Shown here piece after piece: positions 32,673 to 34,301 of a stretch of 35,919 nucleotides of DNA. The notes below the pieces were generated by a model that was not told where the DNA came from, did not search any database, and worked only from the letters and a program-made list of their open reading frames with translations. This DNA is from Escherichia coli (GTDB lineage: Bacteria; Pseudomonadota; Gammaproteobacteria; Enterobacterales; Enterobacteriaceae): assembly GCF_003334305.1 (NCBI RefSeq), contig NZ_QOWS01000032.1, one strand, 5' to 3'. The position numbers and the translations under genes were made by a program. Each line of letters opens with the position of its first letter. Position 1 is the first letter of the stretch.

Positions 32673-34229
32673 TCAGGCGTGTTTTTCCAGCCACACCGCA
32701 AACGGTTCGGTATCAGCGGTTTCCATTTCCTGCTGACGGCGTTCAGATGCCTCGCGCTCGGCTACAAAATCCTCTTCGCGCAGAATTTCCAGCGGCTCTT
32801 CACGCAGCAGATTACGGTAGGCTTCTGCAAACGCTTTGCCTGTTCCGCCAATACCAGTATCAATCATAGACCTTAAGATACGGGCAGAGAAAGTCAGATC
32901 GGGATTATCGAAGCAGGCAACCAGTTCATCACACACTTTCTGATACGCTTCGCCGCCGTTAATGCTATCCAGCGTTTGCGCGACGCGTTTCAGATCGCGG
33001 AACAGATCTTTACCCACCTGCAGTAACGGGAACTGCGCGGTTTCGCAGCCGATACCCAGCGTCAGGCCCGGTTTGCGACCTTCAAGGATCACCCGGTTCC
33101 AGTTAACGCGCGTACAGGCAAGTTCGCTACTGCTCATTTCCGGTGCATCAGCCAGCGCACACCAGACCATAAACAGGTCGAGGAATCGCACCTGCTGTTC
33201 ATCTACACCAATCGGCGAGAACGGGTTGATGTCCAGCGAACGCACTTCAATATATTCAATGCCGCCACGTAACAGCGCATCAGAAGGTGACTCGCCGCTG
33301 CGGGTAACGCGTTTTGGACGAATCGGCGCATACAGTTCGTTTTCAATCTGCAGCACGTTGCTATTGATTTGCAGCCTCTTACCGTCTTTCTCAATACCAA
33401 TCTTCGCGTACTCTTCCGATGGCGTTTTGATTGCCTGTTTAAGGCCCGCTACGTACTCGTAAAGATCGTTGAAGGTAATACCAAGATTGCTTTGCGATTT
33501 ATTGGTATAGCCGAGATCGCTCAAACGAAGAGAGGTCGCATACGGCAGGTAATACATACCGCACTCGGTTTTCTCAAACGGCAGCGACGTTGGTTTTCCT
33601 TGCAGGAAAGAAGAACAAATCGCCGGAGATGCACCAAACAGATAAGGAATGACCCAACCGAAACGATAGTAATTGCGGATAACGCGGAAATAGCCCGCAG
33701 AAATTTTCTCTTTGGCATCAGCGCCCGAGATATCACCGCACTTCGCTTGCCAGAATGCCATTGGCAAAGAGAAATTGTAGTGCACGCCGGAAATGGTTTG
33801 CATCAGCGCGCCGTAGCGATTTTTCAGCCCTTCACGATACAGCGTTTTAAAGCGTCCGGTGTTAGAAGTGCCGTACTGTGCCAGTTCGATGTCCTGACCT
33901 TCTGCGATGTAGCATGGCATACTTAACGGCCACATCCGCTCATCACCCATATTGCGCGCCGTATAACGATGCAGATCGCGCATAAAGGTCAGCATATGTT
34001 CAATATCACCATCCACTGGTGTAATGAATTCCAGCAATGCTTCCGCAAAATCGGTAGTAATCCATTTGTGCGTCAGTGCGGAACCTAATGCTTCAGGATG
34101 ACCTGTTGTTGCCAGTGTGCCATCAGCATTAACACGCAAAGTTTCGCGCTCCAGCCCACGCTGTATCCCCTTTAACGCCTGAGGATGTTTTTCCAGCCAG
34201 GCCAGCGCCTGTGATACGTCCGGGATCAA
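32673..34229 (-). CDS. gshA: Glutamate-cysteine ligase, 518 aa, with TTG start codon
   Basis: Translation [33 protein letters not shown]... recognized as GshA. The initiation codon at 34229..34227 is TTG, preceded by GGGAGG Shine-Dalgarno (reverse complement of 34235..34240). Confidence 0.95.
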
Positions 34230-34301
34230 ATTGACCTCCCGCCTGTCAAAATCGTTTTAATTAGCATAACTGTAATGGTGACCATATGTGCAGGCCTACA
34301 A

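Follow-up and report, generated by a model that had tools for sequence, protein, structure and literature searches.

The window analyzed here is a 35,919-nt stretch of Escherichia coli DNA (NCBI RefSeq assembly GCF_003334305.1, contig NZ_QOWS01000032.1), and the subject of this report is the translation start of one of its genes, gshA, which lies on the minus strand and encodes glutamate-cysteine ligase. GshA is the first, rate-controlling enzyme of glutathione synthesis. The gene order around gshA is csrA, tRNA genes, yqaB, yqaA, gshA, luxS, and emrB, and the region belongs to the E. coli chromosome, with a 601-nt stretch of it matching 5425 of 5426 complete genomes. Translation of gshA is judged to initiate at a UUG codon (34229..34227), with a probability of roughly 93%, and this codon lies within a 57-nt block of sequence that is almost invariant in the species compared.

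The gshA gene and its start signal

The features that define the gene and its start are listed below. Here and throughout, signed positions are counted from the start codon.

32673..34229, minus strand: gshA coding sequence, glutamate-cysteine ligase, 518 codons plus a stop codon at 32675..32673
34229..34227, minus strand: UUG (TTG) initiation codon of gshA, from the RefSeq annotation and the species comparison
34240..34234, minus strand: Shine-Dalgarno sequence GGGAGGT, a GGAGGU core plus a possible G-U pair, with a spacer of 4–5 nt (34230..34233/34234)
34259..34257, minus strand: in-frame TAA stop, nine codons 5′ of the gshA TTG
33995..33993, minus strand: first in-frame ATG of gshA (codon 79), the start that an ATG-only gene caller would pick

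On the minus strand, the bases from 34240 to 34227 read GGGAGGTCAATTTG. The hexamer GGGAGG occupies 34240..34235, complementarity to the 16S rRNA extends by one further base to give GGGAGGT (34240..34234), and five nucleotides, TCAAT, separate GGAGG from the TTG. The original prediction, made from the sequence of the window, had placed the GGGAGG and the TTG at these coordinates, and re-reading of the strand found them exact. The sequence complementary to the 16S rRNA sits within the 4–9 nt 5′ of the UUG that characterize Shine-Dalgarno-led initiation. Its duplex with the 16S 3′ end (ACCUCCUUA) has a predicted energy of −11.0 kcal/mol, a value equaled or bettered by just 0.2% of 10,256 random 25-mers from the window. 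The gshA site ranks second among the ~25 genes of the window that have reliable coordinates, and only that of proW is stronger. This ranking is valid for genes from nrdH rightwards, because insertions and deletions make the positions transferred from strain 503025 incorrect over the left ~18 kb.

The reading frame leaves little room for another start in the 5′ direction. There is no ATG, GTG, or TTG between the in-frame TAA and the TTG, which makes the latter the first canonical start, and the TAA itself rules out an N-terminal extension of the protein in this genome. The TTG had also been described as the only in-frame start compatible with the conserved N-terminus. This is correct for canonical codons, while a near-cognate ATC at codon 2 is the sole formal alternative. 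Further downstream, canonical in-frame starts occur at codons 31 (TTG), 65 (TTG), 72 (GTG), and 79 (ATG).

The identity of the gene is clear. Family models for GshA are NCBIfam TIGR01434 and Pfam PF04262, with membership defined as a full-length equivalog match above the curated cut-off, and the gshA product matches TIGR01434 with 914.8 bits against a cut-off of 393.3, its residues 6–517 aligning to positions 1–512 of the 512-position model. The crystallized E. coli enzyme (PDB 1v4g, 518 residues) has the same N-terminus as the open reading frame (ORF) of the window, and the two proteins differ over residues 1–518 by two natural substitutions (L/P and T/A) and four engineered Cys-to-Ser sites. 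RefSeq places the start at the same TTG in MG1655 (b2688, 1557 nt, 2814883..2816439) and in one PGAP-annotated strain. Overall, the gene is the same as gshA of E. coli K-12/B (b2688; UniProt P0A6W9; PDB 1v4g), with an identical annotated TTG start, a length of 518 aa, an identical N-terminus, and no difference relevant to the start.

A TTG start behind a strong ribosome-binding site is, in other words, already the known annotation of gshA, and the statement that it is a known feature of the E. coli gene is borne out by the RefSeq record. It is said to have been known since the gshA sequencing paper of Watanabe et al. in Nucleic Acids Research in 1986. Full-text searching found no paper in the library covered that discusses the gshA TTG start, and the gene is not listed in the supplements of a riboproteogenomics paper. 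UUG starts are rare in E. coli, with 81 annotated in the K-12 record, and such starts have been confirmed as functional there (PMC4909307).

Conservation of the start codon and the initiation region

A scan of one genome per species yielded 53 gshA loci from the Enterobacteriaceae and near relatives, of which 51 include the 5′ end of the gene. At the position of the E. coli start, 49 of these 51 species have TTG, two have GTG, and none has ATG. The two loci with GTG are the most divergent of the set (72% and 64% protein identity). Salmonella has the same start sequence, with TTG. The N-terminus that had been called conserved is indeed found, at the same position, in the 51 species and in Salmonella. 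The GGAGGT of the Shine-Dalgarno sequence is likewise invariant in a 34-sequence alignment.

Beyond this group, the DNA of 11 cluster representatives with 39–51% identity, obtained from a representative search, was compared. The start called in these distant relatives is TTG in eight (loci L058–L060, L062–L065, and L067), GTG in one, and ATG in two. Genomes with the TTG start include some of 17–24% G+C and others of 36–50% G+C, and their proteins share 39–49% identity with the E. coli enzyme. Record BA000021, of the 17–24% G+C group and with a TTG start, is from Wigglesworthia. The number of residues that precede the motif (R/K)G(I/L)E(R/K)E is 23 in E. coli, 23–28 in the 11 distant proteins, and 23–25 in the nine with a non-ATG start. 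Since these N-terminal lengths agree with that of E. coli, the distant calls represent the same start position. With the caveat that these starts are gene-called, gshA seems to have had a non-AUG start from early on and to have kept it under selection.

The strong Shine-Dalgarno sequence had been said to compensate for the TTG, which is an interpretation that fits the Enterobacteriaceae, with their invariant GGAGGT, but is not general. In the distant relatives with a TTG start, predicted Shine-Dalgarno strength varies widely, from −11.6 to −2.7 kcal/mol, so the pairing of a weak codon with a strong site is not universal.

Conservation at the nucleotide level extends past the start signal itself, and the following features of the region are relevant here.

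34247..34191, minus strand: near-invariant 57-nt block (−18..+39) in the 51-species alignment, GACAGGCGGGAGGTCAAT TTG ATCCCGGACGTATCACAGGCGCTGGCCTGGCTGGAA
34184..34179, minus strand: conserved CCTCAG of gshA codons 16–17, containing the anti-Shine-Dalgarno-like CCUC
34268..34263, minus strand: TATGCT within the conserved ACA(A/G)TTATGCT, a candidate −10 promoter element

The 57-nt block hardly varies in 49 of the 51 species, even at synonymous sites; little of it is left in L049 and L050, the two outliers with a GTG start. Variation is free in the leader just 5′ of the block and at synonymous sites from codon 14 on, with the exception of codons 16–17. Mean pairwise synonymous diversity over gshA codons 2–13 is 0.11 versus a gene-wide median of 0.46 (z = −7.1), and the lowest value in any other window of the gene is 0.33. 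Of the 12 codons from 2 to 13, 8 have an invariant third base, as compared to 2.8% of codons 18–518. At the same loci, luxS, yqaA, and yqaB have values of 0.40, 0.47, and 0.42, respectively, over their first 12 codons. As these three genes show no such dip, the dip in gshA is not a general effect of 5′ ends. The CCTCAG that follows the block is similarly constrained, with codon 16 being CCT in 49/51 and codon 17 CAG in 44/51 species (synonymous diversity of 0.08 and 0.0, respectively).

A comparable picture is seen within E. coli. Of 5425 complete genomes, 5407 (99.7%) carry an identical copy of a 60-nt stretch (34191..34250) that includes the block, and only 4037 match the surrounding 601 nt at 99% identity or more. 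The block is regarded as a modest lead. AUCACA at +15..+20 resembles the discredited “downstream box”; the likeness amounts to a 6-nt match and was judged to be due to chance. Retention of TTG in distant relatives and the near-invariance of the 57-nt block are the points that go beyond the existing annotation and, as far as checked, they are undescribed.

Upstream of the block, the motif ACA(A/G)TTATGCT is kept in all species but the two GTG-start outliers, including species in which yqaA is not the upstream neighbor. TATGCT is a probable −10 promoter element. A promoter scan of the yqaA-gshA spacer returned no promoter at the threshold of the tool, and the −10 assignment is based on conservation only. 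In E. coli, an ATG at −38..−36, in another frame, opens a 13-codon ORF whose UGA stop overlaps the gshA UUG (UUGA).

Predicted RNA structure and competing explanations

Two hairpins are predicted in the mRNA of the initiation region.

34241..34221, minus strand: predicted hairpin H1, CGGGA..UCA / UGA..UCCCG, −7.6 kcal/mol
34211..34198, minus strand: predicted hairpin H2, CAGGC-GCUG-GCCUG at +19..+32, −9.3 kcal/mol, z = −2.4

In H1, some of the Shine-Dalgarno bases are predicted to pair with the UG of the start codon and with codons 2–3, positions +4..+9 forming the 3′ arm of the hairpin. Though weak, it has a core-pair probability of ~0.8 in every context tried, and the Shine-Dalgarno sequence is predicted to be ~70% paired. 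No covariation was found for H1 among the aligned species. The energy of H2 is reached at no other site in gshA among 19-nt windows, and by only 0.18% of such windows across the 36-kb window. What variation there is in H2 affects the loop, at codon 9 and at the third position of codon 8, or else opens the closing pair only, and the divergent L049 has one compensatory change, from G-C to A-U. With a sequence that does not change between species, the region offers next to no covariation. A direct repeat, ACAGGCG, is present on the minus strand at −21..−15 (34250..34244) and at +17..+23 (34213..34207), and alternative foldings of the initiation region are possible since either copy could pair with the GCCUG at +28..+32. 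Rfam gave no match at gathering score near the gshA start, and a permissive scan of 34100..34330 gave one chance snoRNA match (E = 1.3).

The following mechanism is proposed as the best explanation. Initiator tRNA would decode the UUG at 34229..34227 as Met, and the extended Shine-Dalgarno sequence GGGAGGU, at near-optimal spacing, would recruit the 30S subunit. Strong recruitment in combination with an intrinsically weak codon would then give a moderate, fixed rate of GshA synthesis. In plasmid constructs, replacement of the UUG by AUG reportedly increased expression by about 50%. The arrangement appears to be under purifying selection, with a non-AUG start retained in the Enterobacteriaceae and in most of the distant relatives sampled. 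In the Enterobacteriaceae, the initiation region (−18..+39) is held constant at the level of RNA, for the likely reason that local folding tunes initiation. H1 would cover the Shine-Dalgarno sequence and the start codon, while the stable H2 would begin at +19, where the 30S footprint ends on its 3′ side. The sequence might also be read by a partner. Sequence features, annotation, conservation, and the suppression of synonymous change are established by the analysis; the retention of UUG for its weakness, the formation of the hairpins in vivo, and their effect on initiation are inferred.

Known systems offer parallels for both the codon and the hairpin. The AUU start of infC and the GUG start of lacI are conserved non-AUG starts that set or regulate expression. 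As in gshA, the weak starts of infC, lacI, ftsH (UUG; PMC4909307), and nrdE (TTG, in the same window) have been retained over evolution together with a normal Shine-Dalgarno sequence. In the case of infC, the gene is autoregulated through discrimination by IF3 against AUU, whereas the UUG of gshA belongs to the canonical class of starts, and we know of no autoregulation of gshA. Stem-loops around +20 activate initiation in fepA and bamA (Jagodnik, Chiaruttini, Guillier, Mol Cell 2017, as related in PMC12692685, PMC7534054, PMC7769764, and PMC11979758). According to these accounts, a short, stable hairpin ~19–20 nt past the fepA start codon, beyond the 30S footprint, raises initiation as a “starting block”. 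H2 of gshA, at +19..+32, is similarly placed, and its predicted start agrees with the ~+15 to +20 expected of a stable coding-sequence stem-loop of the fepA type. The gshA case differs from fepA and bamA in that its hairpin is predicted only, its start is UUG rather than AUG, and its sequence as well as its structure is frozen. To our knowledge, no small RNA targets H2. By analogy, a fepA-like activating role of H2 at the weak UUG start is plausible.

Where and how ribosomes enter the gene could, in principle, be construed otherwise. Translation might begin downstream, at the ATG of codon 79 or at the TTG or GTG of codons 31, 65, or 72, with the TTG at 34229 merely being the first possible start; ATG is by far the commonest start codon, and an ORF listing by itself cannot separate the candidates. 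This idea has practically no probability in the face of the protein data, given that residues 1–78 of GshA are conserved, TIGR01434 begins at residue 6, and the crystallized E. coli enzyme has the full N-terminus. In addition, all homologues have a start codon and a Shine-Dalgarno sequence at exactly this position, and of the 51 aligned species only 10 have a canonical start (TTG) at codon 31. Alternatively, the UUG might be reached mainly by ribosomes that terminate on the upstream ORF, such that initiation is a coupled re-initiation and not fresh recruitment by the Shine-Dalgarno sequence. The ATG of this ORF does fall within the conserved TTATGCT, and sequences of the Escherichia, Citrobacter, and Enterobacter types have the UUGA overlap. 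However, no Shine-Dalgarno sequence precedes that ATG, and in leaders of the Buttiauxella and Cedecea types a 1-nt difference in length puts the ATG in frame with gshA and abolishes the overlap. With a frame relation that differs between genera, the upstream ORF is not conserved; this, together with the missing Shine-Dalgarno sequence, makes coupling highly improbable. The full set of features expected of coupling, i.e., a start signal of its own, a conserved frame, and an overlapping stop, was not found. TTATGCT is more simply read as containing the −10 element TATGCT, in which case the upstream ATG is not transcribed, and the strong, invariant Shine-Dalgarno sequence of gshA favors direct recruitment.

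Other alternatives concern the reason for conservation rather than the site of initiation. The TTG could lack adaptive meaning, being inherited and nearly neutral because a strong Shine-Dalgarno sequence makes the identity of the codon unimportant. The strength of that sequence is uncorrelated with TTG among distant relatives, and ATG is evidently tolerated, since two distant GshA relatives use it. Yet an ATG that is a single T-to-A change away occurs in 0/51 Enterobacteriaceae species and not in Salmonella, 5407 of 5425 E. coli genomes have no change anywhere in 34191..34250, and TTG persists in genomes of 17–50% G+C with only 39–49% protein identity, all of which renders neutrality unlikely. 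A more serious alternative attributes the 57-nt invariance to a sequence-specific partner, such as an Hfq-dependent small RNA, CsrA or another RNA-binding protein, or a DNA-binding regulator, with folding being secondary and the UUG and Shine-Dalgarno sequence forming part of a translational operator. It is primary sequence that is conserved and not mere pairing ability, including in stretches predicted to be unpaired. A gshA fragment (−23..+3) occurs in chimeric reads of Hfq-CLASH (PMC7213987, supplement 2), and GGA motifs are present in the Shine-Dalgarno sequence and at +9..+11. On the other side, the 5′ chimeras are single reads with the unrelated partners oppA, gatB, metY, and clcA (PMC7213987), and were dismissed as evidence of regulation for that reason. 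Nine of the 51 species have Asn rather than Asp at codon 4 and lack the second GGA there, and the initiation region has no match in Rfam. A search for small-RNA partners by RNAduplex, with fragments of MicA, GcvB, ChiX, CyaR, CpxQ, ArrS, OmrA, and SdsR, yielded long, loop-ridden duplexes no better than those of shuffled sequences (best shuffle fraction of 0.03) and with no coherent seed, and it was set aside as uninformative. No paper on post-transcriptional control of gshA was found in the library searched. A sequence-specific partner is nonetheless a live alternative, because structure leaves the invariance of the unpaired stretches unexplained, though a tentative one that falls well short of even odds.

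Several points limit the mechanism proposed above. The starts of the distant relatives are the choices of gene callers, which were examined for frame, upstream stops, nearby alternative starts, and N-terminal length. The absence of gshA from the supplement text of a tetracycline ribosome-profiling study fits a start that was not revised but is no proof of it. With respect to structure, counting of H2 pairs gave 94% of cells paired and one compensatory change, a result equaled by 13 of 500 shuffles and without significant covariation. Depending on how much flanking sequence is included, H2 is predicted with a probability anywhere from 0.03 to 0.82. The fold of the leader and early coding region is not more stable than that of shuffled sequence (z = −0.2 to −0.8), and a compact, riboswitch-like fold is consequently unsupported. 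Finally, structure does not explain the invariance of the unpaired +10..+18 or of +33..+39.

A more far-reaching version of the proposed mechanism treats the gshA initiation region as a conserved translational control element. UUG would long have been kept across Gammaproteobacteria because a weak start is needed, and in the Enterobacteriaceae the 57-nt block would be an RNA operator composed of H1, a starting-block H2, and single-stranded stretches possibly read by a small RNA or protein, the whole coupling GshA synthesis to a physiological signal. This is possible, but we consider it less likely than not.

Neighboring features, gene calling, and significance

Several other features were noted in the window. 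The small RNA gene micA (32592..32663, plus strand; Rfam, 83.9 bits) is convergent with gshA. The hairpin of the MicA terminator (32642..32659) comes to within 13 nt of the stop codon of gshA (32675..32673), on account of which the two genes share a terminator region. Also at this end of the gene, a chimera of GcvB with the gshA 3′ end is listed in an Hfq-CLASH table. On the other side of gshA, the GTG start of yqaA overlaps the stop codon of yqaB in a GTGA (34727..34730, minus strand), and it is GTG in 32/32 species with an aligned N-terminus. The second annotated TTG start of the window is that of nrdE (19130..21274, plus strand), which has an in-frame stop six codons upstream and overlaps the end of nrdI. 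Directly after proX, there is a match to naRNA4 (25917..25994, plus strand; RF02564, 65.2 bits), described in Rfam as nucleoid-associated noncoding RNA 4 (CssrE). Lastly, a tRNA gene with a CAT anticodon occurs at 3546..3621 on the minus strand (called as Met by ARAGORN; Rfam, 73.8 bits). By position, it is probably an ileY-type tRNA-Ile2. The annotation of strain 503025 places a protein gene at these coordinates, in the left part of the window, which differs by insertions and deletions.

The TTG start also bears on gene calling. The original prediction warned that ATG-only gene callers would mis-start gshA, and an ATG-only call in this window would indeed begin at codon 79, with a loss of 78 residues that include positions 1–73 of the TIGR01434 model. 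The errors found in databases run the opposite way. Public GshA entries of 527 and 531 residues begin with MLNKNEFDRREVN, followed by LIPDV..., and are probably mis-annotations. They arise because a 1-nt difference in leader length puts the upstream ATG in frame with gshA in the genera concerned. The observation concerns proteins P0103, P0108, P0111, P0113, and P0115, and loci L031–L035, L038, L042, L043, L045, L047, and L052. A different kind of irregularity is seen in a pair of Salmonella entries (P0003/P0004), one of which (542 aa) has an internal 24-residue tandem duplication, while in the other (562 aa) the stop codon is read through into the MicA region. The practical value of the TTG start is as a reminder for gene calling that is backed by real database errors in other genera.

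As to biology, a rare start codon that has been kept from E. coli to the endosymbionts of tsetse flies, along with frozen synonymous sites next to it, points to initiation as the step that determines how much GshA is made. Should the block turn out to act as an operator or as an activating stem-loop, it would add a new case of control by early coding sequence, and it would be useful for engineering glutathione overproduction.

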